Shown here in pieces: positions 10,395 through 38,331 of a DNA stretch of 64,000 nucleotides; positions within the stretch are counted from its first letter, which is position 1; the number at the start of each line of letters is the position of its first letter. The stretch covers positions 9,852 to 73,851 of the forward strand of contig JBFMGF010000035.1 of NCBI GenBank assembly GCA_040752675.1, given 5' to 3'. Both the position numbers and the translations under genes were made by a program. This DNA comes from Acidobacteriota bacterium. GTDB taxonomy: Bacteria > Acidobacteriota > Polarisedimenticolia > JBFMGF01. Below the pieces are notes generated by a model. That model was not told the DNA's origin. It did no database searches and was given only the letters and a program-made list of their open reading frames with translations.

Positions 10395-10482
10395 AAGGTT
10401 GCAGCTCACCGCTGGCTTTGTATAATTTCTATGTAAGGAAGGGGAAGGGAAGATCGGCCTAATCGGGAAAAGCTGCAACCTT
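10395..10482. repeat. Perfect 12-bp inverted repeat (AAGGTTGCAGCT / AGCTGCAACCTT) separated by 64 nt, in the convergent intergenic gap
   Basis: Arms at 10395..10406 and 10471..10482, read directly from the sequence. A second hairpin follows (GGAAGGTT 10533..10540 / AACCTTCC 10560..10567, then a T-run 10577..10582). Confidence 0.5.
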
Positions 10483-10580
10483 TAAAGCAAGGTAGCCGAT
10501 AAGGTGAAAACATCACTTGAGGAGATTTACTTGGAAGGTTTAACGGTAGGGCAGGACCGAACCTTCCCTCCCCCAATTTT

Positions 10581-11585
10581 TTAGACTCGTTTGTCTTTTC
10601 TTGCCTCCTTGGCTCCCCGTTCCGGGGCTTCCCTGAAAATTGACCCTCCATCGATTTCAGTTCTGTTCTTCCCTTTTTTCTTTGCCATGTAAAGCGCCGC
10701 ATCCGCAGAATGGATGAGCTCATCGGCATTTTTGATCATCGCATTGTCCGGGAAGGTAGCGATGCCGGCGCTTATCGTCATCGCCAGCGAGCTCTTCTCT
10801 TCTTTGAAGACGTGTACCGAGACGGCTTTCCGGATTCTCTCAGCTACCTGCTTCGCCATCTGGGCGTCGCTATTTGGAAGTATGACTGCGAACTCTTCTC
10901 CTCCATAGCGAGCCACGAAGTCTGTTTCACGGGCATTGGATTGGATAATCCGACCAACCTCCCGCAGTATCCTATCGCCCCTCTGATGGCCGTGAATGTC
11001 GTTGATTTCCTTGAAATCATCGAGATCGAGCATGATGATGGATAGGGACGTTCCGTATCTTTTCGTCCTCTTGAATTCCTCCTTGAGCTTGTTCAGGAAA
11101 TACCTGTGGTTGAAAAGGGAGGTCTTATCATCCGTGATTGCCATTTCCTTTAGCTTGAGATTCGTCTGATCGAGTTGAAGCTTCTTCTTCTCGAGTTCCA
11201 GGTAGAGTTCCCTCTTCCGAAGCATCGCCTTGATTCTGGCATCGACCTCTTCGAAATCGAAGGGCTTCGTCACATAGTCGTCCACTCCGATCCGGAATCC
11301 TTCGACTTTGTTCTTCATTTCATGCTTTGCCGTGAGCATGATGATCGGGATGGACCAGAACATGCTGTCTGCCTTCAACCTTCTGGCCACTTCCAGGCCG
11401 TCCAGCCCGGGCATAATGATGTCCAGGATGATCAGGTCCGGATGATGCTTCTCGACCATATCGAGCGCATGCTGGCCGTCGTAAGCTGAAATTATGTCGA
11501 GTCCCTCCCTCTCGAACCATCTGGCAAGGCAGTTCACGTTGTCCTTTTCGTCGTCAACTATTAGTATCTTGTTCTTCGGATTCAT
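10581..11585 (-). CDS. Response regulator with receiver plus GGDEF diguanylate cyclase domains (PleD/WspR-like)
   Basis: N-terminal receiver (ILIVDDE ... LIILDIIMPGLDG). GGEEF active site in RYGGEEFAVILPN with an RxxD I-site (RETD) five residues upstream. Starts 10 bp after the ftsZ stop. Confidence 0.85.
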   Translation of the reverse strand: MNPKNKILIVDDEKDNVNCLARWFEREGLDIISAYDGQHALDMVEKHHPDLIILDIIMPGLDGLEVARRLKADSMFWSIPIIMLTAKHEMKNKVEGFRIGVDDYVTKPFDFEEVDARIKAMLRKRELYLELEKKKLQLDQTNLKLKEMAITDDKTSLFNHRYFLNKLKEEFKRTKRYGTSLSIIMLDLDDFKEINDIHGHQRGDRILREVGRIIQSNARETDFVARYGGEEFAVILPNSDAQMAKQVAERIRKAVSVHVFKEEKSSLAMTISAGIATFPDNAMIKNADELIHSADAALYMAKKKGKNRTEIDGGSIFREAPERGAKEARKDKRV

Positions 11586-11595
11586 GTGGGACCTC

Positions 11596-12810
11596 TCAAT
11601 CTGTGTGTTTCCTTAAAAAAGTCGGGACTTCAAGGTCGTCCATCGTTCGGCCGATGTTAGGGGAGAAACCGCCACCTCCCTCGCTTCCGAAACGATAGAA
11701 GATATGATGTCCCTTCCTGTGATGGGAGGGGGCGCTGGGATGCGTTCCCTCTGTGATAGGGATCTCCAGAAGCTGCTGCTGGGACTGTTTCTGGACGGAG
11801 ATGGAATCCTTGAATCCGGTCGCAATGACAGTCAGCTTGATCTCATCCTTCATCTCCTTCTTGATGACCATCCCGAGTATGATGTTGGCATCGGGATCGA
11901 CCGATTCGTGGATGATCTTGGCGGCCTCTTCCACTTCGGATAGGGCCATGTCTTCGCCACCAGTGATGTTAAGGAGTACTCCTCTTGCTCCCTTGATCGA
12001 TGTGTCTTCGAGGAGGGGAGAAGAAATGGCTCTCTGTGCTGCCTCCACTGCCCTGTTTTCCCCGCTCGCCACTCCCGTTCCCATGAGAGCAATTCCCATC
12101 CCCTTCATGATCGTCTTTACGTCAGCAAAGTCGTGGTTTATGACGCCGGGGATGGTGATGAGGTCAGAGATTCCCTGCACTGCCTGTCTCAGGATATCGT
12201 CCGCCATCAGGAAGGCTACAGGGAGCGGGGTTGATTTATCGACGGTGTGCAGGAGTCTGTCATTCGGGATGGTGATGACCGTATCAACTTTGTTCTTGAG
12301 ATCAATAAGCCCTTTTTCGGCTTGCTCCTTTCTCTTCTTTCCCTCGAAGTAGAAAGGTTTGGTGACGACGGCCACTACGAGAGACCCCATGTCGCTGGCT
12401 ATCTTGGCAATAACGGGCGCTCCACCAGTCCCTGTCCCGCCACCAAGTCCTGCGGTCACGAAAACCATGTCGGTGCCTGTGATGCAGTCTGCGATCTTGT
12501 TGCTATCCTCTTCTGCAGCCTGACGACCCACTTCGGGATTGGAACCACTTCCTCTCCCTCTTGTGACATTCGTACCTATCTGAACTTTGACGGGGGCCTT
12601 GTTGTTGTTGAGAGCCTGGCAGTCCGTGTTCACTGCGATGAATTCAACGCCTCCGACGTTGGCATTGATCATCCTTTCGACTGCGTTGCAGCCTCCTCCC
12701 CCAACACCGATCACCTTGATGACGGCGCCGTGAAGACTCTCATCAAACACGAGATTCAACTTCTTTGGTTTTCGCTGATCGTTTCCAAATGTGATCATGT
12801 TCCGCCTCAT
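11596..12810 (-). CDS. ftsZ: Cell division GTPase FtsZ
   Basis: Tubulin signature GGGTGTG in [16 protein letters not shown] and N-terminal [10 protein letters not shown]. Confidence 0.95.
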
Positions 12811-12825
12811 AACAATTTGGTTGTT

Positions 12826-14106
12826 TTAAAACATGCCCCGAAACGCTTCCTGTAATTTCTTTATCGTTTTCGTAATGACCGATGGTTGTTCTGTCCTCCT
12901 CTTGGTTCCGAACTTCCATCCATAGAGGACAAGCCCGATAGCAGTGCTGTATGCCGGGCTGTTGACCACGTCGATAAGCCCCCCGATGTTCATCGGAACG
13001 CCACGCCGCACCGGCATGCCGAGGACCTGCTCCGCGACGTCCGTCATCCCCTGCATGATGCAGCCCCCGCCCGACAGAACAACCCCGGCGTTCAAGTAAT
13101 TTTCAAATCCGGTCCTCTTGATCTCATCATGGACGATCTGGAAGATCTCTTCTGCCCTGGGCTGGATGATCCCACAGAGAACCTGCTGGGAGACCATCGT
13201 AGGTTTGTTGTTCCCTATGGCCGGAACCTCCAGGGGCTGATCTTCTTCGAGCAGAGTGCTCAGCGCGCATCCATACTTCTTTTTAATCTTCTCGGCATCT
13301 GGAATAGAGGTGTGCAACCCAACGGCGATATCGTTCGTAAAATTGTCGCCTCCAAGTGGAAAAACGCTTGTGTGCCATGCGGCTCCTTTCTCATAGATGG
13401 AGAGATTGCTCGTTCCTCCTCCGATGTCGATGAGGGCGACGCCGAGCTCCTTCTCATCAGGGATCAGGATGGCTTCGCTCGCGGCAAATTGCTCAAGGAT
13501 GATATCAATTACCTCAATCCCGGCACCGTTGACGCTGGACATCAAGTTCTGGATAGAAGAGATGAGGGCGGTGACGATGTGGACGTTCACCTCCAGACGG
13601 GAGCCGTTCAGGCTGAGAGGATCTTCGATCCCACCCATGTCATCAACGATATATTCCTGGGGCAGAACATGGATGATCTCTCTCTCCTGGGGGATGGTAA
13701 CAGTCTCGGCATGCTCGATAACCCTCTTAATGTCGTCTTTGGTTACCATCTTGTCCTTCCCGGAGATGGCTACGACGCCGCGGCTATTGAAGCTCTTTAT
13801 GTGCGAGCCTGCGATCCCAACGTAGGCTTTCTCGACGGCAAATCCGGACATGAGTTCCGCCTCTTCAACGGCATTCTTGATCGCCTTGATGGTTTCATCG
13901 AGGTTGACGACTACCCCCTTTCGCATCCCGCGAGATGGGACTGTTCCCACGCCTATGACCTCGAGAAGGGAGTTTTCCTTGATCTCGGCAATGACACAGC
14001 AGATCTTCGTCGTTCCGATGTCGATTCCGATAATGTAGTTCTCGTTTTTAGGCATGGCACTCACCTTATGAATGAAATCGGTTTGACAACAACACGATTC
14101 TTCCAT
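12826..14106 (-). CDS. ftsA: Cell division protein FtsA
   Basis: Actin-like ATPase: IIGIDIGTTKICCVIAE, DIGGGTSNLSIY and VLSGGG motifs. The true start is probably MPKNENYIIGIDIGT, which makes the ftsQ overlap smaller. Confidence 0.9.
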   Translation of the reverse strand: MEESCCCQTDFIHKVSAMPKNENYIIGIDIGTTKICCVIAEIKENSLLEVIGVGTVPSRGMRKGVVVNLDETIKAIKNAVEEAELMSGFAVEKAYVGIAGSHIKSFNSRGVVAISGKDKMVTKDDIKRVIEHAETVTIPQEREIIHVLPQEYIVDDMGGIEDPLSLNGSRLEVNVHIVTALISSIQNLMSSVNGAGIEVIDIILEQFAASEAILIPDEKELGVALIDIGGGTSNLSIYEKGAAWHTSVFPLGGDNFTNDIAVGLHTSIPDAEKIKKKYGCALSTLLEEDQPLEVPAIGNNKPTMVSQQVLCGIIQPRAEEIFQIVHDEIKRTGFENYLNAGVVLSGGGCIMQGMTDVAEQVLGMPVRRGVPMNIGGLIDVVNSPAYSTAIGLVLYGWKFGTKRRTEQPSVITKTIKKLQEAFRGMF

Positions 14107-14891
14107 CTCAGATCAATGTATTCTACGTTATCGAACTGCCTGGCGATGTCGTCCTTGATGGAAAGGTAATGGTCTATGTTCTCATCGAAGGTTTCTTCGT
14201 CCAGATAGAGGATAGGGCTACCATCGGTAAATCGGACCTGGAAATAGTGTCCTTTGCAGACGTTGATCTCGGAGACCATGTCCATCATGGATGGTCTCGC
14301 ATCTCTGATCGTTTCAAGCATGGCGATGCCTCTCTTGATCCGCAGGACAGATTCTTCCAAGTTATCCGTCTCCGCTCCTATTAGTATGGGGAAATCGAAT
14401 TTGGAATATTCAGGCTTCAGGAAATCGATAGGAACGGCATTCCGGTCGATCAGATAGATCTCTTCCTTCCAGAGGAGAAGAGCGACCGGTTCTCTCTCTT
14501 TGATCTCGATCTCAATCTTCGATGGGAGGTTCTTCTTGATGGCGGCATCTTCCACCCAGGGATTTTCTTTGAGTCTCTTCTTTAGCTGTTCGAGATCGAT
14601 GGTGAAGATGTTCGTTCTCAGGATGCTGGCGATGGAGGATTTCAGTTCGTCGCATGAAGAATAGTTGCAACCCATGATCTTTATATTCATGACGTCGTAC
14701 TCGGGAGAGGAGATGAAATAGAGATACCCTTCCTTGAATCCAAAGGCCAGTCCTGCGATGACGATTGATAGAAACAGGAAGAAAAGGATCAGTTTCAGGA
14801 TCCCCTTCCTCGTTCTCCTCCTTCGGACGAGGAGGTTGCCCCTCATGTACCGTCGATCCTTGCCTAGCTCTTTTTCGTTCAGATAATCCAT
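14061..14891 (-). CDS. ftsQ: Cell division protein FtsQ/DivIB (POTRA domain)
   Basis: Single N-terminal TM followed by a POTRA-like periplasmic domain; sits between murB and ftsA in the dcw cluster. Confidence 0.7.
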   Translation of the reverse strand: MDYLNEKELGKDRRYMRGNLLVRRRRTRKGILKLILFFLFLSIVIAGLAFGFKEGYLYFISSPEYDVMNIKIMGCNYSSCDELKSSIASILRTNIFTIDLEQLKKRLKENPWVEDAAIKKNLPSKIEIEIKEREPVALLLWKEEIYLIDRNAVPIDFLKPEYSKFDFPILIGAETDNLEESVLRIKRGIAMLETIRDARPSMMDMVSEINVCKGHYFQVRFTDGSPILYLDEETFDENIDHYLSIKDDIARQFDNVEYIDLRWKNRVVVKPISFIR

Positions 14892-14912
14892 AGATTCAAA
14901 ATGACTAATGTC

Positions 14913-15857
14913 TCATCGTCGCCAGATGACTACTTCTTCTTCGAGAAGGATCCCGGCTTTCATCAGAACCACTTCCTTCACTTTGTCGATAAGCCAGAAA
15001 ATATCGTCAGCGTCTGCCTCGCCCATGTTCACGATGAAGTTGGCATGAACTGGCGAGATGATGGCGCCACCCCTTGTCAATCCTTTTAATCCAACTGATT
15101 CGATGATCCGCCCGGCATGGTCCCCCTCCGGATTCTTGAAGATGCATCCGGAACTTCTCACCCCCTGCGGCTGGCTCCGTCTCCTCCTTTCTCTAACCTC
15201 ATCCATCTTTGCAAGGATTTCTTCTCGCTCTCTCGGCATGAATTCGAAAAGGATCTCTGTTAGAATTGATCCGGATGAAAGAGGGGATTTTCTATAGCTG
15301 AAGTCGCCTTGGGATACTTTCCTGCGCAGAGCCCTGCCAGTTCTATCGATGTAAGAGATCTCTCTGATGAACTCAGAAATGGAATGACCGTATGAACCGG
15401 CATTCATCATGACGGCTCCTCCAAGAGAACCCGGAATGCCCTCGGCGAACTCCAGACCGCCGAGTCCTGATTCGGCAAGGCTCCTGATGAGTCTGGAGAT
15501 GGATAACCCGGATGAGGCTCGAACGAAATTCCCTTCTGTCCGAACCGTCCTCTCCAGGGTGTCCGTTGCGATGACGACATCCTCCAGATCCTCGTCTCCG
15601 GCAACGATGTTCGTACCCGCTCCCAGAATGTGGAAGGAGAGGTCATTTGCATGGAATTCACGGATAATCCTCTCCATGGAAATGATAGTTGACGGAAAGA
15701 CCATATAGGAAACCTTTCCGCCAACTCCCATGGACAAGATGTCTTTCAGGAGCCGATCTTTCCTGACCTCTGCTCCGTAATCGGCCGCGATCTGTTCCAC
15801 GATGCTTTTCCCTATCGCAATCATTCCTCCTTCAATCCTCCTTTTTATGCTGTGCAA
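14913..15857 (-). CDS. murB: UDP-N-acetylenolpyruvoylglucosamine reductase MurB
   Basis: FAD-binding GAGTNIV motif and a C-terminal MurB domain; dcw context. Confidence 0.85.
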   Translation of the reverse strand: MHSIKRRIEGGMIAIGKSIVEQIAADYGAEVRKDRLLKDILSMGVGGKVSYMVFPSTIISMERIIREFHANDLSFHILGAGTNIVAGDEDLEDVVIATDTLERTVRTEGNFVRASSGLSISRLIRSLAESGLGGLEFAEGIPGSLGGAVMMNAGSYGHSISEFIREISYIDRTGRALRRKVSQGDFSYRKSPLSSGSILTEILFEFMPREREEILAKMDEVRERRRRSQPQGVRSSGCIFKNPEGDHAGRIIESVGLKGLTRGGAIISPVHANFIVNMGEADADDIFWLIDKVKEVVLMKAGILLEEEVVIWRR

Positions 15858-17226
15858 GGAGTTTCAGGAAAGCATCCCCGACTCTCCAGACGTTGCCGGC
15901 ACCCAGAGTGATGACCATGTCTTTCTTCTGAACTACCTTCATCAGATATGGAGGGATCTCCTCGGGCTTTTTTATGTAGACCACATCTTTGAGATGACTA
16001 CTCTCTCTTCTGATCCTGTCTGCAAGCAGCTCTCCCGTGACTCCCTGGATCGGTTTTTCTCCAGCAGGATATATCTCAGTGACGATCAGGAAGTCTGTAT
16101 GTTTGAAGGAGTGAGCGAACTCATCCATTAGAGCGCTGACCCTGGTGTAGCGGTGCGGCTGGAAGACGGTAACCAGTCTCCTGTTCCATCCCTGTTTCGC
16201 CGTGGCCAGCGTGGAGATTATCTCTGTCGGATGATGGCCGTAATCATCGACGACCATGATGGAATCAATCTCACCTCTCAGGTGAAAGCGCCTCTCTGCG
16301 CCGCGGAACGCTCCGAGCACCTTCGCAATCTTCTTGAATTCGATGTCGAATTCGAGGCCGACGGCAAGAGCCGCGAGCGAGTTCAGAATGCTGTGTCTGC
16401 CCGGCACCCTGAGAGTCACCTTCCCCAGTTTCTTCCCTCTTAGATATGCGGTATAAGCAGACTGGAATTGATCGAATGTTAAGTTGCATGCATGGAGGTC
16501 TGCCTTCTCGTTGAATCCATAGGTGACAATCTTCCTGTCAAGCCTCGGCATGATCTTTTGAATGTTCCTGTCGTCAAGGCAGATGATGCCGACGCCATAG
16601 AAGGGGATCCTGTTCAGGAAACGAACGAAGGCGTTCATGATCTCATCGAGGTTCATGTAATAGTCCAGGTGCTCCTTGTCGATGTTGGTTACGATGGCAA
16701 TGATCGGACTGAGTTTCAGGAAAGAGCCATCACTCTCATCCGCCTCTGCAACCAGGAAGTCTCCTTTGCCAAGCTTCGCACTGCTTCTAAGTATGCCGAG
16801 CTTTCCACCGATGACGATGGTCGGATCGAAACCGCAACGGGAAAGGATGGTCGCCACCATGGAAGTGGTCGACGTCTTTCCATGCGATCCTGCGATGGCA
16901 ATGCCGTATTTCATCCTCATCAGCTCGGCGAGCATCTCTGCCCTCGGAATGACAGGGATCTTCCTCCTTATGGCTTCCCGGACCTCGATGTTGTCACTAT
17001 CGATGGCAGAAGAGACGACGACGACGTCCGGGTTCTTGATGTTTGTTTCCCTGTGCCCGATGGCGATCTTCCCTCCCAGTTTCCTCAGCCTCTTGATGAT
17101 AGGGGAAAAAGTGATGTCGGAACCAGTCACAGCGTAATTCAGGTTCAACAAAACTTCGGCGATTCCACTCATTCCGATTCCCCCGATACCAATAAAATGA
17201 ATGTTGTGAGCTTTCCGGAACTTCAT
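15832..17226 (-). CDS. murC: UDP-N-acetylmuramate--L-alanine ligase MurC
   Basis: IHFIGIGGIGMSGIA N-terminus and Mur ligase P-loop GSHGKTSTTSM. Confidence 0.9.
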   Translation of the reverse strand: MKFRKAHNIHFIGIGGIGMSGIAEVLLNLNYAVTGSDITFSPIIKRLRKLGGKIAIGHRETNIKNPDVVVVSSAIDSDNIEVREAIRRKIPVIPRAEMLAELMRMKYGIAIAGSHGKTSTTSMVATILSRCGFDPTIVIGGKLGILRSSAKLGKGDFLVAEADESDGSFLKLSPIIAIVTNIDKEHLDYYMNLDEIMNAFVRFLNRIPFYGVGIICLDDRNIQKIMPRLDRKIVTYGFNEKADLHACNLTFDQFQSAYTAYLRGKKLGKVTLRVPGRHSILNSLAALAVGLEFDIEFKKIAKVLGAFRGAERRFHLRGEIDSIMVVDDYGHHPTEIISTLATAKQGWNRRLVTVFQPHRYTRVSALMDEFAHSFKHTDFLIVTEIYPAGEKPIQGVTGELLADRIRRESSHLKDVVYIKKPEEIPPYLMKVVQKKDMVITLGAGNVWRVGDAFLKLLAQHKKED

Positions 17227-18335
17227 CTCCCAGCCATCAATCTCTCAGCCATGTCTGCAATCTTCTCAGCGGCACCACCTCTGTGCAGGGAGGCCGCATT
17301 CTTTTCCATCTCACCGATTCGTGATGGATCGTCTATGAACCCCTTTAATGTTTCGGCAACGTACGCTCCGGAGAATTCGGCATCCTCGCACACGAAAGCT
17401 GCTTTAGCCTTGAGGAGAGCTTCCGCATTTCTTCGCTGATGATCATGGGCGGCGAATGGAAAGGGAACAAGGATGGAAGCCTTACCCGCAGCCGTGATCT
17501 CCGTGATGGTCGAAGCTCCTGCCCTCGATATGACAATGTCGGCATGCTCGAATCTCTTTGGCATGTCAGTGATGAATTCCAGAACTTCCGCTTCCACACC
17601 CTGTCTGATGTAAGCTTGCCGGACAGTTTCCAGTTCGGCGCCTCCCGTTTGGTGGGTGATTCGCAATCTGTCTTTGAAACTCCTCAGGAGGGGTAGAGCT
17701 TCCACCATCCCCTTGTTCAGCGTTCTGGAGCCCTGACTCCCACCGGAGACGAGGACAGATAGCTTGTCGCTGCGCTCTTTCTTTCTCAATGACGTGAAAT
17801 CATTTCTCACGGGATTTCCTGTGTTCGTAACTTTTCCGTACAGATACTTTCTTGATTCTTCGAAGGAGACGGCCACTTCCTTTACGAGCATGGAAAGGAT
17901 CCTGTTGGTGAGTCCAGGGAAGAGGTTCTGCTCTTGGATCATCGTCGGGATTCGCAGGATCCAGGCGGAGATTATCACAGGGCCGGATACGTAACCGCCG
18001 GCTCCGATGACGATGGCCGGTCTGAGCCTCCTCAGATCTCCAAGGCATTCAAAGAATGAGTGGAGTGCCGTTAGGAATCCCAGGACTTTTTTCGAGAGTT
18101 TCTTTCCGGTTATGCCGCACACATCCAGTTCAATGAGTTCGAAACCTTCTGGAGGGATGAGCCTTCTCTCGAGTCCCCTGTTGCTGCCGATGAAGACAAT
18201 CCTTCTCGAACCATCCCTCTTCTTCAACTCCCGTGCCATGGAGATGGCGGGGAGGATATGTCCTCCAGTTCCCCCTGCCGCAATCACAATGATTTCCTTT
18301 CTCTCATTCACGAACGCCCCTGGTCTTTCCTTCAA
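17223..18335 (-). CDS. murG: UDP-GlcNAc:undecaprenyl-PP-MurNAc-pentapeptide GlcNAc transferase MurG
   Basis: IVIAAGGTGGHILPA N-terminal motif and GT28 family architecture. Confidence 0.9.
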   Translation of the reverse strand: MKERPGAFVNERKEIIVIAAGGTGGHILPAISMARELKKRDGSRRIVFIGSNRGLERRLIPPEGFELIELDVCGITGKKLSKKVLGFLTALHSFFECLGDLRRLRPAIVIGAGGYVSGPVIISAWILRIPTMIQEQNLFPGLTNRILSMLVKEVAVSFEESRKYLYGKVTNTGNPVRNDFTSLRKKERSDKLSVLVSGGSQGSRTLNKGMVEALPLLRSFKDRLRITHQTGGAELETVRQAYIRQGVEAEVLEFITDMPKRFEHADIVISRAGASTITEITAAGKASILVPFPFAAHDHQRRNAEALLKAKAAFVCEDAEFSGAYVAETLKGFIDDPSRIGEMEKNAASLHRGGAAEKIADMAERLMAGR

Positions 18336-19429
18336 CTCGAGTGCTGCGAGATGTTGAGAAGTATCCCCGCACCGATCAGATTGACGATGATGGACGATCC
18401 TCCGTAGCTGATGAATGGGAGAGTTATCCCCTTCGTCGGCACTAGCCCCGTCGCAACGGCTATGTTGAGAAACGCCTGCACAACGATCATCGATGTAATC
18501 CCCATTCCGAGGTAATAGCCAAAGAGGTCATGGATCCTGGCGGAGGATATCACTCCTCTCCAGAGCAAGACCAGAAAGGCTACCACCACCAAAACGGCTC
18601 CAATGAGGCCGAACTCCTCTCCAACGACCGAGTAGATGAAGTCAGTATGGGGATCTGGAAGGAAAAAGGCCTTCTGCTGTCCGGAGCCGAAATGTTTCCC
18701 CGTTATTCCGCCGCTTCCAATTGCGATGAGAGACTGATTCAACTGGTATCCTGAGCCGAGCGGGTCAGCATCCGGGGATAGATATGCAAAGATCCTGCTT
18801 ATCCTGTAAGGAGCTGTGGCTACCATCAGGGCCATGGCGGCGAGTCCGGCTGCCCCGATGATTGTTATCTGTTTGTATCTCATCCCGGCGAGAAAGAACA
18901 TGATGCCTGAAATTAAAAGCAGTATGAAGGCCGTTCCGAAGTCTGGCTCAATGGCGATTATGAGGGACATCCCTCCCACTACAAGAAGGCAGGGTCCGTA
19001 GATCTCCTTAAGATCGTTCTGGCGGTGTTGTTTCAGTTCAAGCCAGTAGGCCACGAAGAAGATGGCGGCCAGCTTGGCAAATTCCGAAGGCTGGATGGAG
19101 AAGAATCCGAGAGAGAACCACCGCCGCGTCCCGTGAATAGGAGGCATTGTCAGAACAAACAGAAGAAGGGCGGAAGTCACGATCAGGAAGATGTTGATGA
19201 ACCACTTCTTCTTGTATATTCTGTAATCGAGATTCATAATCAGATAGAGGAGTAACATTCCCGCGAGGACGAAGATGATCTGCCTGATGAGGAAATGATA
19301 GGAATTCCCCATCTGCTTCATGGCGACGTAATATGAGGCGCTTCCAACCATCAGTATCCCGAAGATGGAGAGAACAGTCGTCGTGATGAAGAGAACTTTG
19401 TCGGATGATAACTTCTTAGGCATCCCCAA
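18332..19429 (-). CDS. ftsW: Peptidoglycan glycosyltransferase FtsW (SEDS family)
   Basis: Ten predicted TM helices with SEDS motifs (GSGYQLNQSLIAIGSGG, PDPHTDFI); dcw position between murD and murG. Confidence 0.85.
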   Translation of the reverse strand: MGMPKKLSSDKVLFITTTVLSIFGILMVGSASYYVAMKQMGNSYHFLIRQIIFVLAGMLLLYLIMNLDYRIYKKKWFINIFLIVTSALLLFVLTMPPIHGTRRWFSLGFFSIQPSEFAKLAAIFFVAYWLELKQHRQNDLKEIYGPCLLVVGGMSLIIAIEPDFGTAFILLLISGIMFFLAGMRYKQITIIGAAGLAAMALMVATAPYRISRIFAYLSPDADPLGSGYQLNQSLIAIGSGGITGKHFGSGQQKAFFLPDPHTDFIYSVVGEEFGLIGAVLVVVAFLVLLWRGVISSARIHDLFGYYLGMGITSMIVVQAFLNIAVATGLVPTKGITLPFISYGGSSIIVNLIGAGILLNISQHSS

Positions 19430-20786
19430 GCTCCTCCATTAATTCGAGAACGTTGCGGCGGAAGTCATCCCCTCTCTCCTCGTAGTTCCGATATGCATCA
19501 AAGCTGGCACACCCAGGCGCCAGGAGGACGATCTCTCCCGCAGAGGCTGTCTTGAACCCCCTCTTGACTCCGTCGGCAAGCGAAGAGGCTTCATAGATGG
19601 GTGCGCTCCCCTCGATCTGGCCTTTTATCTTCTCCGTCGCTTCGCCGATCAGGATGACTTCTTTCACGTTGTCCTGGATTAGAGGAATAAGTCTGGTGAA
19701 GTCGCCCCCCTTATCCCTTCCTCCAAGGATCAGGACAATCTTTTTTCCCGGGAAGGATTGAATTGCCTTGATTGCAGAATCGACGTTCGTTGCCTTGGAA
19801 TCGTTGTAGAAGGAGATCCCTCTAATCTCCGCCACATGCTCCAGCCTGTGGGGGAGTCCCTTGAAACTCATCACGGCAGCCCTTATTATGGGGCACTTTA
19901 TTCCTACGACCCTTGCGGCCAGGGCAGCGGCCATCACATTTTCCACGTTGTGCATTCCGGGAAGAGGAATCTCGTCGAGCGCGATCAGATATTCTTCCTT
20001 TCCCTGAAGTTTGAGGTAGATATTTCCAGCCTTGATAAAAGCCCCTTTCTCGACAGGATGCATCGAAGAGAAATACAGTTTCTGTGCCTTGATATGTTCC
20101 TCAAGGGTTTTCGAATCGCTGTCCTCTCTGTTCAGAATTGCATAGTCTGATTCTATTTGATTCTTGAAGATGGTTCCCTTGGCAGCGATGTAATGAGCGT
20201 AGCTCTCGTATCGGTCAAGGTGGTCGGGGCTCAGGTTAAGTAAAAGAGCAATATGCGGCTTGAAGCTTTCGATTGCTTCGAGCTGATACGATGAGAGTTC
20301 CACGGAATAAAACTTATCCTGAGAATCAGCGGCGACCATCTCAATCAGGGGGAGGCCGATGTTCCCACAGGCTCTGCAGTCGATTCCGGCGCAGGATAGT
20401 ATCCATGCTGTAAGCGATGTCGTTGTGCTCTTGCCATTGGAGCCGGTGATGCCGATGATCGTTCCCTTCAGAAAGAGAGAAGCCAGTTCTATCTCGCCGA
20501 TGATAAGCTTGCCATCATCGCGCGCCGCTTTCAATGGATAGATGTTCAATGGGACACCCGGGCTTGCGACTATTATGTCGCTGGAAGTAAAGTCTTCAAG
20601 TATATGTTTACCGGCAACAACCCTGATCCCTTTCTCGTCAAGCTCTAGCGTGGAGATGCCGAGCTCCTCTTTTTGTTTGATGTCGGTGGCGACGGTCAGA
20701 GCCCCTCGCTCTGCGGCAAAGAGGGAGGCGGCCAGCCCGCTCTTTCCCATCCCAACAACCAACACCCTTTTGTTCTTCAATTCCAT
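19416..20786 (-). CDS. murD: UDP-N-acetylmuramoylalanine--D-glutamate ligase MurD
   Basis: Mur ligase P-loop GITGSNGKSTTTSL and N-terminal VLVVGMGKSG. Confidence 0.9.
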   Translation of the reverse strand: MELKNKRVLVVGMGKSGLAASLFAAERGALTVATDIKQKEELGISTLELDEKGIRVVAGKHILEDFTSSDIIVASPGVPLNIYPLKAARDDGKLIIGEIELASLFLKGTIIGITGSNGKSTTTSLTAWILSCAGIDCRACGNIGLPLIEMVAADSQDKFYSVELSSYQLEAIESFKPHIALLLNLSPDHLDRYESYAHYIAAKGTIFKNQIESDYAILNREDSDSKTLEEHIKAQKLYFSSMHPVEKGAFIKAGNIYLKLQGKEEYLIALDEIPLPGMHNVENVMAAALAARVVGIKCPIIRAAVMSFKGLPHRLEHVAEIRGISFYNDSKATNVDSAIKAIQSFPGKKIVLILGGRDKGGDFTRLIPLIQDNVKEVILIGEATEKIKGQIEGSAPIYEASSLADGVKRGFKTASAGEIVLLAPGCASFDAYRNYEERGDDFRRNVLELMEELGDA

Positions 20787-20800
20787 TTTCTATACTTTCC

Positions 20801-21886
20801 CTACCTCAGCTTAAGGGTTGCGAGGCTGAGCAGAGAAAAGATGATGGCAACGATCCAGAAACGTATGACGACCTTTGATTCCTTCCACCCGAGATGCTCG
20901 AAATGATGGTGGAGTGGAGCCATCTTGAATATTCTATTTCCGGTCAGCCGATAGGAGGAAACCTGAAGGATGACTGACATCGCCTCGATGACAAACAGTC
21001 CTCCGACCAGGACCAGCAGGATCTCCTGTTTGGTCAGGACAGCAAGGGTCCCCAGCGACCCTCCCAGTGCCATAGAACCGACATCTCCCATGAAGATCTC
21101 GGCTGGATGGCTGTTGTACCAGAGAAAGCCGATGCTAGCCCCGACGACAGCTCCACAAAAGACGGTCAATTCCCCGGTTCCCTTGATGTTGATGATGCCA
21201 AGATAATTGGCGATTAGAGCATGACCCACGGCGTAAGTGATAATGGCGAAGGTCGCCGTGGCGATCAGGACGGAACCGATGGCAAGGCCGTCCAGCCCAT
21301 CCGTAAGATTCACCGCATTGGCGGAGCCGATGATGACGACGATGGTGAAAAGTATGTAGAACAATCCCAGATCGGGAGTGAAAGTCTTGAAGAAGGGGAC
21401 GCTGAGCTTCGTTGTGTAGACTCCGTACTTCGAGAGATAGATGAGAAGAAGACCGAGTAAGAATCCAGCGGCGAACTGGATGGCGAGCTTTGAACTGATC
21501 GTCAGTCCAAGATTCTTTCCTCTCCTGATCTTCATGAAATCATCTATGAATCCGATGGTTCCGAAGACGATCATGGAGGTGACAATGACCCAGACGAAGA
21601 GATTCATTATGTCCGCCCAGAGCAGCGTGGGAATGATCACGGAGATGATGATGAGGATCCCACCCATAGTCGGCGTGCCAGCCTTCGGCTTGTGAAATTG
21701 GGGTCCTTCCTCTCTGATTCTCTGCTCGACCTGGAGTTTTTTCAGCGTCCTGATCATACTCGGTCCGAAGAGGAATGAGATGAGCATTGCCGAAAGAATG
21801 GCGAGTGCAGTTCGAAAGGTGATATACTTAAAAACGTTGAACGGCCCGATGACATCATGGAGGGAATAGAGGAAATGGTAAAGCAT
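20801..21886 (-). CDS. mraY: Phospho-N-acetylmuramoyl-pentapeptide transferase MraY
   Basis: Polytopic membrane protein with MraY motifs (PTMGGI, NLTDGLDGLA, GDVGS). Confidence 0.9.
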   Translation of the reverse strand: MLYHFLYSLHDVIGPFNVFKYITFRTALAILSAMLISFLFGPSMIRTLKKLQVEQRIREEGPQFHKPKAGTPTMGGILIIISVIIPTLLWADIMNLFVWVIVTSMIVFGTIGFIDDFMKIRRGKNLGLTISSKLAIQFAAGFLLGLLLIYLSKYGVYTTKLSVPFFKTFTPDLGLFYILFTIVVIIGSANAVNLTDGLDGLAIGSVLIATATFAIITYAVGHALIANYLGIINIKGTGELTVFCGAVVGASIGFLWYNSHPAEIFMGDVGSMALGGSLGTLAVLTKQEILLVLVGGLFVIEAMSVILQVSSYRLTGNRIFKMAPLHHHFEHLGWKESKVVIRFWIVAIIFSLLSLATLKLR

Positions 21887-23280
21887 TAGATTCCCTCCTC
21901 CAGTTCCTGCTTCAATTTTTCAATTACCACTTCCATCTTCATCCCTCTTGAGCCTTTAACCAGAATCAGGTCTCCTTCTAGGACGAGGCCCGCAACTGCA
22001 TCGGATGCCTGCTTCGAGTCCGGGAAATGCCTGCATGCTTTCAATCCACGGCTTGCGGCCGCTCCAAGGGTAAATGCTGAGAGTTCTCCTACGCCCACGA
22101 GAAGCTCCACTCCGGCTTCCGCGATTTTTTCTCCTATGGCTGCATGGAGCATGGGAGCATCTGATCCGAGCTCCAGCATGTCTCCGAAGACAACGACTTT
22201 CCTTCCGTCGACCCTTTCCCGCGCAATGCTCTCCAGAACCATTTCCATTGCAGCCGGATTGGAGTTGTAAGTATCATCGATGATGGTTATCTCTTTCTTC
22301 AATCTTGTGATGACTCCCCGTCTGTCGCATGGTTTGAATGCCGAAAGAGCCTCGGATGCCTTGCCGAGATCCGCTTCGAGTGAAGCGCAGACCGATAAGG
22401 CAGCCAGGGCATTGTAAACGTTATGCAGTCCGAAGAGGGAAAGATGCGTTTGGAATCTCTCTCCCCTACACTGCGCGTCAAAGGTGACTCCTTCCCTGAT
22501 GCTGCCATGAATGGACACGGCATGAATGTCGGATCCCGGCATGAGCCCGTACGAGAGCCTCTCTCCTGGGAACCTCATGGCGATGGCCCTGACCCTCTCG
22601 TCGTCTTTGTTATAGATAGCGACCGATCCATGTCTCATCCCTTCAAAGAGCTCTGCCTTGGCGCGGGCGATCTCCTCGATGGAATGGAAATGCTCTAGAT
22701 GAACTGCTTTGATGCTCGTCAGCACTCCGATTTCAGGGTCGGCGATGTCGGTGAGCTTCTTTAACTCTCCAGGATAACTCACCCCCATTTCAAGAACGGC
22801 CACTTCACACCGTTCGTCCATTTCGAGGAGCGAGAGGGGAAGTCCGTAGAGATTGTTCAAGTTTCCCCTCGACCTCATTGTTCGGAAGGAGGGAGAGAGG
22901 GCATGGAAGATCATCTCCTTCGTCGTCGTCTTTCCCATGCTTCCCGTAATCCCTACCACCTTGAACCCCTCTTTCACTCTGACATGGTGAGCAAGCTTCT
23001 GAAGCGCTTCCCTCGTGTCCGCAACCCTGATGATCCGGAGCCTTTTTTTGAACTCCTCATTCGGTGCCCTGGAGACGATGGCAGCGGTCGCGCCATGGTC
23101 TATGGCATCTTGGAGATAGTCATGACCATCCTGGTTTGGACCCCTGAGGCAGAAGAAAAGATCTCCATCTTCCACTTCTCTTGAATCGATCTTGAACCTG
23201 CCAATCCTGGCACTGGCGTCTCCTGAGATTAGGGTCCCCTCAACGGTGGCCGCTATTTCCCGGATCTCAAGTACTGACAT
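21886..23280 (-). CDS. murF: UDP-MurNAc-tripeptide--D-alanyl-D-alanine ligase MurF
   Basis: Mur ligase P-loop GITGSMGKTTTKEM; dcw order. Confidence 0.85.
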   Translation of the reverse strand: MSVLEIREIAATVEGTLISGDASARIGRFKIDSREVEDGDLFFCLRGPNQDGHDYLQDAIDHGATAAIVSRAPNEEFKKRLRIIRVADTREALQKLAHHVRVKEGFKVVGITGSMGKTTTKEMIFHALSPSFRTMRSRGNLNNLYGLPLSLLEMDERCEVAVLEMGVSYPGELKKLTDIADPEIGVLTSIKAVHLEHFHSIEEIARAKAELFEGMRHGSVAIYNKDDERVRAIAMRFPGERLSYGLMPGSDIHAVSIHGSIREGVTFDAQCRGERFQTHLSLFGLHNVYNALAALSVCASLEADLGKASEALSAFKPCDRRGVITRLKKEITIIDDTYNSNPAAMEMVLESIARERVDGRKVVVFGDMLELGSDAPMLHAAIGEKIAEAGVELLVGVGELSAFTLGAAASRGLKACRHFPDSKQASDAVAGLVLEGDLILVKGSRGMKMEVVIEKLKQELEEGI

Positions 23281-24817
23281 TCTGAACTCTAACTCCCATT
23301 TTCTTCCTGATCAATTGCGCAGCTACCTTCTTGTCTTCAAAAGGTATGAGAGTGTCTCCTATCTGCTGGTATTTCTCATGCCCCTTTCCCGCGATGACGA
23401 CGATGTCTCCCTTTTGCGCCATCATGATGGCCTCTTCGATTGCCTCGGCTCTATCGGTGATCGTTATGTACTTTGATGAGGAGCCACCAACCGTGGCGAT
23501 TCCCGTTTCGATCTCGGAGATGATGGCTTCCGGATCTTCACTCCTCGGATTATCTGAGGTGATGATGACGAAATCGCTCAGCCTTGCGGCGACTGCTCCC
23601 ATCTTCGGCCTCTTGAGCCTGTCCCGGTCTCCGCCGCATCCGAAAACAGTGATGAGCCTTGCTTCCATGATCTCCCTCAGTGAGATGAGGAGGTTCTCCA
23701 GAGCATCATCGGTGTGCGCGTAATCGATGAGGAGTGTGAAGTCTTGCCCTTCCTCGATCTTCTCGAACCTTCCCGGAATATGGCGGCATTTCACGATACC
23801 CTCTCTGATCGCCTCTGGTTCCAATCCGAGAAGGAGGGCAGCGGCAAAGGCTGCCGTCGCGTTGTAGATGTTGGGGATGCCGATGATAGGAGAAAAGAGC
23901 TGGTGTTCCTTTCCCTGAAAGCGAACGGCAAAACGGCTTCCCGTGAAGGACATTCCTTCAACTCTGATCCTGAAGTCCGAATCGTCGGAAAGGCCGTAAG
24001 TAGAGATTCTCCCTTTCGATATACTTATCATGCTCTTCCCCCATTCCGAATCGATGTTGACGATGGAGTCGGATCCATCTGGCAACTCTTGGAAGGCAAG
24101 CGACTTTGTCCTGAAGTAGTCCTCCAGTGTTCCATGAAAGTCTAGATGGTCCTGCGTGAGATTTGTGAAGATGAGCTGCCGAAATTTCATTCCATGGACT
24201 CTCTTAAGCGCGATCGCATGGGATGAGACCTCCATGACACAGTATCCGAACCCTTTTTCATGAAGCCTGCTCATGAAGGCGAAAATGTCAGATGATTCCG
24301 GCGTCGTTCGCTCGGACGGTGCTATCTCATCGCCCATCCTGCGAGTGACCGTTCCGAGAACGCCGCTGCTGTTCCCCGAAGCGAAGAGGATCGATTCTAG
24401 GAAGTAACATATCGTTGTCTTTCCGTTAGTTCCGGTCACGCCGATGACCCGAATCTTTTCGTCGGGTTTCTCATAGAAGTTCCTTGAGGTCACCGCAAGA
24501 GCCTCTCTTTCATCGCGGACGACGACAAGTGGAATGTTATCTGGAAGGAGATGGATGTCTCTCCAGGAAAGAACGGCTGCTGCCCCTGCCGCAATGGCTT
24601 CGTTCACGAAATAGGCACCATCGAGCTTGAATCCTTTGAGGGCGACGAAGAGAAATCCTGCTCCAATATTCCTGGAATCGTATGAGATTCCCCGGATCTC
24701 GATTGAGAGGTCCCCTCTCACGTTCTGGACACCGATCCCTTTAATGAGCTGCTGCAGCTTAATTGTATTTTCCCTCCTTCTTTTTCCCTTCTTCCGGTAA
24801 TGGAACATTTTCTGCAA
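23267..24817 (-). CDS. murE: UDP-MurNAc-L-Ala-D-Glu--2,6-diaminopimelate ligase MurE (DNPR motif, meso-DAP type)
   Basis: GVTGTNGKTT P-loop and DNPR in ITSDNPRSEDP. The annotated start overlaps ftsI by 59 bp, so the true start may be internal. Confidence 0.9.
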   Translation of the reverse strand: MQKMFHYRKKGKRRRENTIKLQQLIKGIGVQNVRGDLSIEIRGISYDSRNIGAGFLFVALKGFKLDGAYFVNEAIAAGAAAVLSWRDIHLLPDNIPLVVVRDEREALAVTSRNFYEKPDEKIRVIGVTGTNGKTTICYFLESILFASGNSSGVLGTVTRRMGDEIAPSERTTPESSDIFAFMSRLHEKGFGYCVMEVSSHAIALKRVHGMKFRQLIFTNLTQDHLDFHGTLEDYFRTKSLAFQELPDGSDSIVNIDSEWGKSMISISKGRISTYGLSDDSDFRIRVEGMSFTGSRFAVRFQGKEHQLFSPIIGIPNIYNATAAFAAALLLGLEPEAIREGIVKCRHIPGRFEKIEEGQDFTLLIDYAHTDDALENLLISLREIMEARLITVFGCGGDRDRLKRPKMGAVAARLSDFVIITSDNPRSEDPEAIISEIETGIATVGGSSSKYITITDRAEAIEEAIMMAQKGDIVVIAGKGHEKYQQIGDTLIPFEDKKVAAQLIRKKMGVRVQNVST

Positions 24818-26936
24818 GTTCGAGAAAACAGATATCCCCCCTCTTCAAGTGGGAGCCTGCTGATGGATACTGAGCAACAACGTAACCAATGCCCGAAGCC
24901 TTAACCCTGCTTCCTCTGGTTGAGAGGAATGAGACGGCGTCTCTCAAACTTCTTCCCGATAGATCCGGCATGACGCCATTCTCCATATCGATTGGGAGCG
25001 GCTCGTCCAGTTTAGAGAATCTAACGAAACGGTCAAAGCCTGCCAGCATCGACCCTGAGCGGTTCTTGACAAGCAGCAGGTTCGTCGGGACGAGTGATGT
25101 TTTTTCATCGTGAAGATCTTCAGGCATTTCCTTCTGGAATCTATGGGCAGGAAACGTCTCCTGGTTGGGAGGGATCTGAAGATAGGAAAGTGTCTCTCCC
25201 ATGATCCTGGAGAAGACCGGCGCTGCGACATCACCGCCATAGTAATATCTCCCACTGGGAAGGTCGAGCATCACGAGGCAGATGACCGCCGGGTTATGGG
25301 AAGGGGCAAAGCCGATGAAGGAAGCCACGAAACGGTCGTTTCTGAAGAGTCTGAGGTTGAAATCAAATACCTGCGCCGTTCCCGTCTTGCCGGCGACCGA
25401 GTAACCCGGCACGGCAGCCTTCTTACCGGTTCCGTTGAGTATGACTCCCTCGAGAACTCCTGTGACTATCCTCGCACCTCTTGCGGAAAGGACTCTCTTC
25501 TCCCTGAAGCGCTTGAATAAGTGGTATTCACCGGAAGGATCGATGTAGCCCTTTCCAACGTGGGGCTGGACCATGACGCCATCGTTGGCGATTGCGGAGA
25601 ATGAAGCAAGCATCTGAATCGGAGTGACTCCGATCTCCTGCCCGATTGAGATACTGGCCTGCGAGATCTTGGACCATGTGGAAGGGGAACGCACCAGAGA
25701 AGAGCCGCTTACCTCGCCCGGGAGATCAATGCCGGTCTTATCCCCGAAGCCGAAGTCCTTGATGTATCGGTAGAAGGTCTCTTTGGAAAGTCTCGATGCG
25801 ATCTTGATCATTCCCACATTGCTGGAATGCTCGATGATCTTCATGACGCTCAGATCACCGTAAGGGTGATGGTCCGAGATCGGTATGCCGGCGACTCTGA
25901 TGACACCATTTCCGCAGAAGATGATCTCGGCAGGATCGAATTTCCCCTCTTCGACAAGAGCGGAGAGTCCTATCCCCTTGAACGTTGACCCAGGTTCGTA
26001 GAGGTCCGTGATTGAGATATTCTTGCGGTTCTCCCGAGGATACCCGGTAACGTTGTTCAGGTTGAATGTCGGTCTGTTTGCAATTGCCAGAATCTCTCCG
26101 GTTGATGGATCCATAACGATGGCACATCCCTTGTAGGCATTGGTTTCCGCAAAGGCTCTCCCAAGTTCTTTCTCGGCGATGTACTGGAGAACCTCATCGA
26201 TGCTCAAAACCAGATGGCTTTCCCTTCTTCTCTCGCCTGAATTCAGCACGGGGAAACTGTTCCCAACAGCATCCCTGGTGACCTGAAGAAAGATCTGATC
26301 TCCCTTGAGAAAAGAATCGTACTGCGACTCCACACCATCCAGTCCTTTCTCGTCGATATCAGAGGTTCCTATCACGTGGGAGGCAAGGAAGCCTTTGGGA
26401 TAGTATCTCTTGAACTCCTTCTCGAAGAATATCCCGGCTTCCTGGAAATGCTTCTCCATGTGTCCCCTGCTGAGGCACTCTTCCTTCATCCTCCCTGAGC
26501 AGGGGACGACCCCTTCGATGTCCAGCCTCATGATCTCGTGCTTTTCCTTGGGTGTGATCTTGCGTTTCACGAAGAAATATTTTTTGTTTTTTTGCTTCTT
26601 CTCGTAGAAGCTTCTTAATGCCTCATGGAGGTTGAAATGGAGCACCTTTGAAAATTTTGCCAGTGTATCCTCGGGATTAGTTATCACCTGAGGGTTGATG
26701 ACGAGGCTGTCCGCCTCCACGCTGATTGTGAGTATCCGCCCGTTTCTATCGAAGATGGTTCCCCGCCTGGGTTCAAGGCTCCATATGGCCTCCTGCCTGG
26801 CCGTTGCTTCCTTCTCATAGTGGTCGTGTCTGATAATCTGAAGAAAAACGAGCCGGGTGATGATGACCCCGCTCCATGCAGAGAGCAGGACCAGAAACGT
26901 GATCAATCTTGTCCTGTGCTTTCTATCCTGCGTCAT
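24759..26936 (-). CDS. ftsI: Peptidoglycan D,D-transpeptidase FtsI (PBP3-like class B PBP) with a C-terminal PASTA domain
   Basis: SxxK (GSTFKG), SxN (HSSNVG) and KTG (AGKTGTAQ) motifs. The last ~70 aa (VMPDLSGRSLRDAVSFLS ... QYPSAGSHLKRGDICFLEL) match the PASTA fold pattern. Confidence 0.85.
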   Translation of the reverse strand: MTQDRKHRTRLITFLVLLSAWSGVIITRLVFLQIIRHDHYEKEATARQEAIWSLEPRRGTIFDRNGRILTISVEADSLVINPQVITNPEDTLAKFSKVLHFNLHEALRSFYEKKQKNKKYFFVKRKITPKEKHEIMRLDIEGVVPCSGRMKEECLSRGHMEKHFQEAGIFFEKEFKRYYPKGFLASHVIGTSDIDEKGLDGVESQYDSFLKGDQIFLQVTRDAVGNSFPVLNSGERRRESHLVLSIDEVLQYIAEKELGRAFAETNAYKGCAIVMDPSTGEILAIANRPTFNLNNVTGYPRENRKNISITDLYEPGSTFKGIGLSALVEEGKFDPAEIIFCGNGVIRVAGIPISDHHPYGDLSVMKIIEHSSNVGMIKIASRLSKETFYRYIKDFGFGDKTGIDLPGEVSGSSLVRSPSTWSKISQASISIGQEIGVTPIQMLASFSAIANDGVMVQPHVGKGYIDPSGEYHLFKRFREKRVLSARGARIVTGVLEGVILNGTGKKAAVPGYSVAGKTGTAQVFDFNLRLFRNDRFVASFIGFAPSHNPAVICLVMLDLPSGRYYYGGDVAAPVFSRIMGETLSYLQIPPNQETFPAHRFQKEMPEDLHDEKTSLVPTNLLLVKNRSGSMLAGFDRFVRFSKLDEPLPIDMENGVMPDLSGRSLRDAVSFLSTRGSRVKASGIGYVVAQYPSAGSHLKRGDICFLELAENVPLPEEGKKKEGKYN

Positions 26937-26944
26937 TCACTTCC

Positions 26945-27376
26945 TCAATTCCATCCAGCCTTCATAGCGGCCTGCTCCGCATCCTGAGACTTGCTCTCTG
27001 TGAGTAGATGCTTGCCCTGTTCATTGTCCGGATGCACCCGAACGACCACCAGACATCCTCCATCTCCCTGTTCCTTGAGGTATAAGTCCCTTCTTGCCTG
27101 ATCCTCGATCATGCGAGGGGATTCAAGGTACGATCTTTCCGCTTCGAGATAGATCGCGTTCTTTATGAGGATCTGTTTCCGGCTCTTCAGCTCTTCTATC
27201 TCATATTGGTAGCGGACGTACTCGATGCGATTCCTGAGATAAAGTAGGATCGGAATAGAGATGAGAACGAGAATGATGAAGAAGATGAAAAACTCATTCC
27301 TCTTCTTCCGGTCCTTCTCCCGAATGATCCTGCGGTTAAGTCGGCTCTTTCTAGATCTGATTGCCTTTGATGTCAT
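26945..27376 (-). CDS. ftsL: Cell division protein FtsL-like (small bitopic membrane protein)
   Basis: Single TM (FFIFFIILVLISIPILLYL) followed by a coiled-coil region; located between rsmH and ftsI. Confidence 0.5.
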   Translation of the reverse strand: MTSKAIRSRKSRLNRRIIREKDRKKRNEFFIFFIILVLISIPILLYLRNRIEYVRYQYEIEELKSRKQILIKNAIYLEAERSYLESPRMIEDQARRDLYLKEQGDGGCLVVVRVHPDNEQGKHLLTESKSQDAEQAAMKAGWN

Positions 27377-28299: not shown

Positions 28300-28342
28300 C
28301 TCTTACAGGAATGCGTTAATAACCGTTTTCTCATCATCGGGA

Positions 28343-32696: not shown

Positions 32697-32756
32697 TGAC
32701 TCCGCGATTTTTGGTGTCGAAAAGGCTCCCATCTGCGAATAGGAGTTTTTGAATAG

Positions 32757-34802
<2,046 letters not shown>

Positions 34803-34808
34803 TGTGGG

Positions 34809-36182: not shown

Positions 36183-36312
36183 GATCTGTGTCAAAAAGGC
36201 ACTGTCCGGATTCTATCGGCTGGGGGCATTTTATAACTAATTGATGATAAAAAAGATATATAAAATACCGCTAACATAAAAATGGTATAAGTTTTGCGAT
36301 TTATATGCAGCT

Positions 36313-36681: not shown

Positions 36682-36715
36682 TTATTATCTTTACTCTAAC
36701 TTCGGAGGATCAGGA

Positions 36716-38254: not shown

Positions 38255-38331
38255 GCAGCTCCTTATAAAATTACTTAGAATAACTGAGAACCGGGAGGTG
38301 TTCCCTGGGAAAGGCGAAAGGGAAAGTTCTT

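Follow-up and report, generated by a model that had tools for sequence, protein, structure and literature searches.

A response-regulator diguanylate cyclase gene follows ftsZ at the end of the division cluster in Polarisedimenticolia-related Acidobacteriota

The dcw cluster, which groups genes for division and the cell wall, is among the most conserved gene arrangements of bacteria, and where a lineage has added to it, this is usually the sign of a division biology that is specific to the lineage. Here we describe such an addition in a stretch of 64,000 nucleotides from the metagenome-assembled genome (MAG) of an Acidobacteriota bacterium (contig JBFMGF010000035.1; the whole stretch is called the window below), in which the last gene of the dcw cluster encodes a diguanylate cyclase made of a receiver (REC) domain and a GGDEF domain. 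Our reading, to which we give a probability of roughly 60%, is that an active single-receiver diguanylate cyclase is now the fixed last dcw gene after ftsZ in a clade of Acidobacteriota and that it works by a division-linked mechanism. An earlier note on this DNA had placed a REC-GGDEF gene 10 nt downstream of ftsZ at the end of the dcw cluster, and coordinates, domain matches and gene order all bear this out. What is new is the conserved pairing of ftsZ with the cyclase in Polarisedimenticolia-related Acidobacteriota, whose components are individually well understood. A full-text literature search returned no report of GGDEF genes placed after ftsZ or within a dcw cluster; with its incomplete coverage this is absence of evidence only.

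The evidence that carries this reading is the conservation of the gene pair. Searching for homologues of the cyclase returned an identical protein (P0001, MEW5806434.1, entitled 'MAG: diguanylate cyclase [Acidobacteriota bacterium]') and, behind it, REC-GGDEF proteins of 320-345 aa in a graded series. For eight of these orthologues (P0003, P0004, P0007, P0012, P0018, P0037, P0048 and P0088; 45-68% identity) we looked up the genomic context, and in every case the gene comes straight after ftsZ and closes a dcw cluster. A metagenome scan with an alignment of the orthologues gave one further true orthologue locus among the matches listed (L093, 43% identity), in which the cyclase again stands immediately after ftsZ, and a Candidatus Polarisedimenticolaceae MAG that was picked through its FtsZ alone (60% identical; locus L173) likewise has ftsZ followed by a REC-GGDEF gene. 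Adjacency is kept in 10 of the 10 independent orthologue loci examined besides the window, at 43-68% identity. As a check, the earlier note had proposed to see if a GGDEF regulator also closes the orthologous dcw clusters of related genomes, and within the clade the answer is clearly positive. The gap between the two genes measures 21, 13, 21, 7, 46, 4, 6 and 75 nt in these relatives and 340 nt in L084/L085; counting L093, whose gap is inexact, it falls between 4 and 75 nt in nine of the ten loci. The gene past the cyclase varies from locus to locus (creatininase, CARF_Card1, CYTH, Lactamase_B_2, Big_5 or ABC-F), so that the pairing with ftsZ persists while the other neighbour is exchanged. 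Contigs of equal size, including those of 2570, 4074, 4256 and 5793 bp, occur in both the GGDEF and the FtsZ match lists; such small contigs fit little beyond two genes, which implies additional adjacent pairs.

The linked cyclases also behave as one family. Their divergence ranking parallels that of the FtsZ proteins, two of which (P0154 and P0158) come from Candidatus Polarisedimenticolaceae, and in a neighbour-joining tree they form a single family of three subclades apart from the unlinked paralogues. The nearest non-linked homologues (P0099 at locus L091, and L094, a paralogue from the metagenome scan) fall in a separate clade of that tree. A family-specific tryptophan in helix alpha1 of the REC domain, W23 (11517-11519), occurs in 97% of the linked proteins but in 0% of the unlinked clade; for K154, which makes the hinge motif D-x-K-T and not DxLT, the shares are 91% and 0%. 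F97, D115, E209 and A218 also distinguish the linked family, and the length of the linker is almost invariant. As an outgroup we used a peptide-pattern scan of GTDB genomes with the FtsZ of the window, which missed true relatives and gave 80 ftsZ loci of 46-58% identity from Terriglobia, Desulfobacterota, Nitrospirota, Fibrobacterota and other lineages; 68 of them extend for at least 1.2 kb downstream, and in not one of these 68 does a GGDEF gene follow ftsZ. The cyclase is a clade-wide dcw appendage in Polarisedimenticolia-related Acidobacteriota, a clade that here comprises the lineage of the window MAG and its Candidatus Polarisedimenticolaceae-type relatives. Among the unlinked homologues, those of L091 (6001-8063) form a tandem REC-GGDEF pair, close to which the other strand carries an HD_5 (HD-GYP-like) gene.

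The cluster to which the cyclase is appended runs in the order mraZ-rsmH-ftsL-ftsI-murE-murF-mraY-murD-ftsW-murG-murC-murB-ftsQ-ftsA-ftsZ-REC-GGDEF, with all 15 of its junctions between -59 and +43 nt. Its FtsZ scores 432 bits against TIGR00065 (cut-off 295), carries the Pfam Tubulin and FtsZ_C domains and is 100% identical to a protein annotated as FtsZ from an Acidobacteriota MAG (P0128). The spacer between ftsZ and the cyclase contains a ribosome-binding site, GAGG (11592-11595), 6 nt upstream of the cyclase ATG. Its length lies within the range of the dcw junctions and makes it indistinguishable from an internal operon junction, and the cyclase gene has a guanine-cytosine (GC) content of about 0.50, equal to that of the neighbouring genes. 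The earlier note had seen no intervening terminator and had taken a promoter or terminator in the 10-bp gap as the observation that would speak against it. On the minus strand, the junction and its surroundings showed neither a terminator-like nor a sigma-70-like site, the promoter scan being one for the sigma-70 consensus only. It also gave no sigma-70-like promoter on the coding strand inside ftsZ, and the RNA at the junction has no significant structure (z = -0.25). These features make it likely that the cyclase is co-transcribed with ftsZ in the window. Co-transcription appears less likely in the members of the family whose genes are separated by a 75-nt gap with a hairpin or by 340 nt.

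On its other side the cyclase faces a convergent gene of the creatininase family (9617-10390), so that the dcw unit ends with the cyclase. A long-range stem is predicted between these two convergent genes, with about 19 bp closing about 100 nt and a T-run after the stem on the plus strand. The minus strand of the region 10400-10600 folds with -57.4 kcal/mol (z = -2.33), and the stem is a possible shared or bidirectional transcript end or terminator. An Rfam scan of the whole window matched zero RNA families. Some features of the cluster and its surroundings may be recorded here in their own right. The murB gene lies between murC and ftsQ in the window (14913-15857) and in L081-L084, whereas the same slot has no murB in the Polarisedimenticolia-type loci L086, L088, L090 and L173, and ddl is absent from the dcw cluster in all of these loci and in the window. 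In L092 (1222-3465) a called product of 747 aa joins MurC (Mur ligase domains) to FtsQ (POTRA_1 and FtsQ_DivIB_C), which is either a genuine MurC-FtsQ fusion or an artefact of a frameshift or of the assembly. Division and cell-wall genes are also found in the window outside the dcw cluster, namely ftsE-ftsX (46085-47655, plus strand) and a LysM-M23 peptidase of the EnvC/NlpD type (61923-62771, minus strand).

Several observations weigh against our reading. In L173 the 75-nt gap (6258-6332) holds a nearly perfect hairpin of about 30 pairs (-45.2 kcal/mol, z = -6.5) without a U-tail, which from its predicted fold could be an intercistronic stabiliser, an attenuator or an element of the repetitive extragenic palindromic (REP) type, and the 340-nt gap of L084/L085 contains an AT-rich, TATAAT-like stretch. 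These two gaps mean that tight transcriptional coupling is not universal in the family, whereas adjacency is (10 loci), and expression of the two genes may be partly uncoupled in some members. In a neighbouring lineage picked through its FtsZ (L174, 58% identical) ftsZ is followed by an SRPBCC gene and no cyclase, so the gene is not indispensable for division in related bacteria. No histidine kinase, c-di-GMP (cyclic di-GMP) effector or phosphodiesterase linked to the cyclase was found in the open reading frames scanned in the window or in the related loci. All the organisms concerned are uncultured MAGs, and conserved adjacency can persist without functional coupling. The earlier note had spoken of a c-di-GMP output hard-wired into the division operon: adjacency stands in every orthologue locus examined, tight coupling does not, and such an output with phospho-relay control at division is something that we would still only infer.

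The same observations feed the rival explanation that survives best, in which the cyclase is a functionally independent regulator of lifestyle (biofilm, motility or exopolysaccharide) with a promoter of its own that lies within the 3' end of ftsZ or behind it, and in which its place next to ftsZ would be inherited synteny devoid of regulatory meaning. Response regulators with a GGDEF domain are plentiful and for the most part govern changes of lifestyle, which fits this explanation, as do the TATAAT-like stretch in the 340-nt gap, the strong hairpin of L173 and the lack of the cyclase in L174. The creatininase, apolipoprotein N-acyltransferase (Lnt), beta-ketoacyl synthase (KAS) and CYTH genes recur in relatives too, so that regional synteny is generally retained. 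Inherited synteny accounts less well for an adjacency that is still found at protein identities as low as 43-48%, with at least six changes of gene on the other flank, and for gaps of 4-46 nt in eight of the ten related loci (that of L093 being inexact) next to 10 nt in the window. A promoter of its own within ftsZ also finds no counterpart in the sigma-70 scan of the coding strand. We regard an independent regulator as unlikely, although it is the alternative that has to be taken most seriously.

Judged from its residues, the protein is apparently a catalytically competent and phosphorylatable diguanylate cyclase that bears an inhibitory site (I-site). Pfam Response_reg matches residues 7-118 with 107 bits and PF00990 (GGDEF) residues 149-308 with 161.3 bits (cut-off 23.8), and TIGR00254 is matched with 175.3 bits (cut-off 37.4). 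The phospho-acceptor set of the REC domain is complete, with D11/D12 (11550-11555), D55 (11421-11423), T85 (11331-11333), Y104 (11274-11276) and K107 (11265-11267), and these pocket residues are conserved across the orthologues. In the catalytic domain the active site (A-site) reads GGEEF (residues 228-232, 10890-10904), and the RxxD motif of the I-site, R219-E-T-D222 (10920-10931), lies five residues upstream of it and is complemented by R250 (10836-10838); R219, D222 and R250 are invariant in the family. The metal- and GTP-binding residues D187, N195, D204 and K302 align with D327, N335, D344 and K442 of PleD. In alignments of 16 and 84 homologues, the A-site, the metal- and GTP-binding residues and the I-site are invariant or at least 90% conserved. 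The earlier description of a response regulator with an intact GGEEF and RxxD is upheld by the translation and by the alignment to PleD, and the degeneracy of the GGDEF motif that the earlier note had considered as a possible objection is not seen, the motif being intact and invariant.

The AlphaFold2 model (mean predicted local distance difference test score, pLDDT, of 90.7) consists of the REC domain (residues 1-110), one unbroken helix (111-150), the GGDEF domain (151-311) and a disordered basic tail. The heptad 'a' positions of the stalk are L131, L138 and L145; of these, L138 and L145 are invariant, as is N142, and L131 is almost so. The 'e' position A149 lies at -3 from D152 of the hinge motif D152-D-K-T155 (11121-11132), which keeps the D and T of DxLT and has K in place of its L. 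On this model the architectural class is that of WspR and DgcR, with REC, coiled-coil stalk and GGDEF, and indeed WspR (3bre) comes first among the full-length Foldseek matches, ahead of PleD and DgcR. WspR of Pseudomonas aeruginosa (PA3702, 3bre) and DgcR/Rrp1 of Leptospira biflexa and Borrelia (6zxb, 6zxm) resemble the window cyclase in the order of REC, helical stalk and GGDEF as well as in the phospho-acceptor set, the GGEEF A-site and the RxxD I-site. They differ from it in sequence, with an identity of only about 32-34% and a score against the DgcR equivalog of 189 bits (cut-off 500), and in the hinge, which is D-x-K-T in 91% of the family of the window cyclase and canonically DxLT in the WspR/DgcR class. 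WspR, moreover, has a Wsp chemosensory cluster, whereas the window cyclase has neither a Wsp cluster nor an adjacent kinase. We know of no description of a dcw location for WspR, DgcR or Rrp1. In its last heptad the stalk follows the 'slippery axxdexx' pattern, in which 'e' stands at -3 relative to the hinge. DgcR owes its activation by register shift to this pattern, which has been pointed out in WspR as well (PMC8041772).

PleD of Caulobacter crescentus (1w25, 2v0n, 2wb4) is alike in being a response regulator with a GGEEF motif and an I-site of RxxD plus an R390 equivalent. It also gave the highest summed sequence score of the PDB entries (218 bits), because the single REC of the window cyclase matches both PleD receivers. 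PleD has two receivers (REC and the adaptor REC') in about 455 aa, whereas by Pfam and AlphaFold2 the window cyclase has one REC in 334 aa, and against the PleD equivalog NF007135 it scores 286.8 bits, below the cut-off of 474. We therefore rejected membership in the PleD family, as the window cyclase has neither the tandem RECs nor the equivalog score of that family. The label 'PleD-like' that had been given to the cyclase is architecturally wrong and only loosely right, in view of the single REC, that score and WspR as the best full-length structure. PleD couples c-di-GMP to the cell cycle, and we take its gene to lie outside the dcw cluster of Caulobacter.

No PilZ, EAL or HD-GYP domain occurs among the window open reading frames scanned, and no che/wsp-type genes were found in these or in the related loci. 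The window encodes a single histidine kinase (31221-32696), past mraZ and neighboured by ligA and an NtrC-type regulator. It opens a signalling-dense region on the plus strand (31221-39675) that continues with ligA and two NtrC-type activators, one for sigma-54 (34809-36182) and a second at 38332-39675, with a stand-alone receiver (36313-36681) and an HtrA-like PDZ protease (36716-38254) between them; none of the signalling genes of this region is obviously paired with the dcw cyclase.

In the mechanism that we propose, ftsA, ftsZ and the cyclase would share an mRNA, on which the cyclase would be translated from its own GAGG start, and the supply of the enzyme would track the expression of the division genes. 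A histidine kinase encoded elsewhere would phosphorylate D55, upon which, if the homology with DgcR and WspR is a guide, the coiled-coil register of the dimer would shift, two GTP-loaded GGDEF domains would meet and c-di-GMP would be made. Binding of the product at R219, D222 and R250 may then cap the output, as the conservation of these residues suggests. In the last and weakest step, c-di-GMP would serve a process coupled to division or to the cell cycle, by analogy with ftsB-dmxA of Myxococcus and PleD of Caulobacter. That the signal is used in this manner seems to us, from these analogies, slightly short of an even bet. More tentative still is the full picture, in which a phosphorylation-gated cyclase is a fixed dcw member co-expressed with ftsZ throughout a class-level clade and c-di-GMP is integral to the division programme.

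The closest precedent for the genomic logic, a cyclase gene in a conserved operon with a divisome gene, is DmxA of Myxococcus xanthus, which is encoded in a conserved ftsB-dmxA operon, is recruited by the divisome and produces a burst of c-di-GMP at cytokinesis (PMC11255338). DmxA differs in being a membrane protein (transmembrane domain, two GAF domains and GGDEF) without a receiver, in that its ftsB partner lies outside the dcw cluster and in belonging to another phylum; the window cyclase would take phosphorylation as its input and has ftsZ itself for a partner gene. YfiN/DgcN of Escherichia coli shares a functional tie to the Z ring and to division and differs in having no receiver domain, and its gene presumably sits in its own yfiRNB operon and not in a division operon. 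YfiN is a bifunctional cyclase and division inhibitor that stops division at the Z ring when the envelope is stressed (PMC4992967), and it is described as a membrane-bound periplasmic-sensor cyclase without an I-site (PMC10127611).

The YfiN precedent lends itself to a minor rival, in which the cyclase would act on the divisome directly, binding FtsZ or FtsA as a phosphorylation-dependent modulator besides or instead of making c-di-GMP. The conserved surface residues W23, F97, D115, E209 and A218, absent from the paralogue clade, could mark an interface with such a partner, and expression near FtsZ stoichiometry would suit a binding partner. However, the protein is soluble, lacking both a membrane anchor and any known FtsZ-binding motif, the strong conservation of its catalytic and I-site residues argues that the enzymatic output matters, and W23 lies on what we take to be the usual kinase-docking face of receiver domains. 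We consider direct action improbable. Finally, GGDEF genes are numerous in many genomes and a single genome could place one beside ftsZ, and an exact-sequence contig look-up of the window cyclase gave no match (the identical P0001 being present in the homologue database), but chance adjacency, a genome-specific recent insertion by horizontal transfer or rearrangement, and a degenerate non-catalytic GGDEF domain can be dismissed, because 10 other divergent loci keep the adjacency, cyclase divergence parallels that of FtsZ, the GC content is indistinguishable from that of the neighbours, and the GGEEF motif, metal and GTP ligands and I-site are intact and invariant.

Table 1. Position of the cyclase gene, its domains and the surrounding features in the window
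Feature	Position	Strand	Evidence
Complete dcw cluster, 16 co-directional genes	10581..28786	-	ORF (open reading frame) maps, translations; Pfam for ftsQ, ftsA, ftsZ
ftsZ, 404 aa counted from the first ATG (NCBI product: 400 aa)	11596..12810	-	TIGR00065, Tubulin, FtsZ_C
ftsZ-cyclase spacer, 10 nt, coding strand GAGGTCCCAC	11586..11595	-	Sequence reading
REC-GGDEF response-regulator diguanylate cyclase gene, 334 aa	10581..11585	-	Pfam, TIGR00254, AlphaFold2
REC domain, residues 7-118	11232..11567	-	Pfam; conserved in 84 homologues; translation
Continuous helix, residues 111-150 (REC alpha5 and coiled-coil stalk)	11136..11255	-	AlphaFold2 secondary structure
GGDEF catalytic domain, residues 149-308	10662..11141	-	Pfam; alignment to PleD 2wb4; translation
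Predicted long-range stem between the cyclase gene and the convergent creatininase gene	10441..10574	.	RNA fold

The surroundings of the cluster end show further recurrent genes. The window contains two Lnt paralogues, one of 546 aa (2844-4484, plus strand), whose gene overlaps the end of a KAS gene (1552-2847, plus strand), and one of 810 aa (7095-9527, minus strand), which is fused at its C terminus to a long TPR array. The relatives L082, L086, L088 and L173 share the KAS-Lnt-creatininase-CYTH neighbourhood. A small protein with a weak CARF_Card1 match is encoded between the cyclase and the creatininase gene, convergent to the cyclase, in the close relatives L081 (7321-7893) and L083 (7362-7916) and is absent from the window. 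Near the dcw end of L084 (7018-9811), L088 (10595-12963) and L173 (9585-11257) a CYTH gene is followed by a pair of NTP_transferase and APH-type kinase genes, which presumably resembles the MurU/AmgK enzymes of cell-wall recycling. In L084 this trio stands directly after the cyclase on the same strand, whereas in the window only CYTH is found nearby (776-1390, minus strand).

From the point of view of the biology of these bacteria, the meaning of the pair depends on how far the coupling goes. If the cyclase were merely a conserved neighbour of ftsZ, it would be an ordinary response-regulator diguanylate cyclase. If c-di-GMP is indeed part of the division programme, its output might for example be a pulse at cytokinesis that sets the state of the daughter cells, or a checkpoint on the Z ring. 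After PleD of Caulobacter and DmxA of Myxococcus, division and c-di-GMP would then have been coupled a third time, by independent evolution, and for the first time with the cyclase wired to ftsZ itself. A division-linked role would extend the idea that c-di-GMP is deployed deterministically at division, so far held for Caulobacter and Myxococcus, and the ftsZ-cyclase pair provides a testable entry to the link between division and second messenger in the abundant uncultured Polarisedimenticolia-type Acidobacteriota of sediments and soils.

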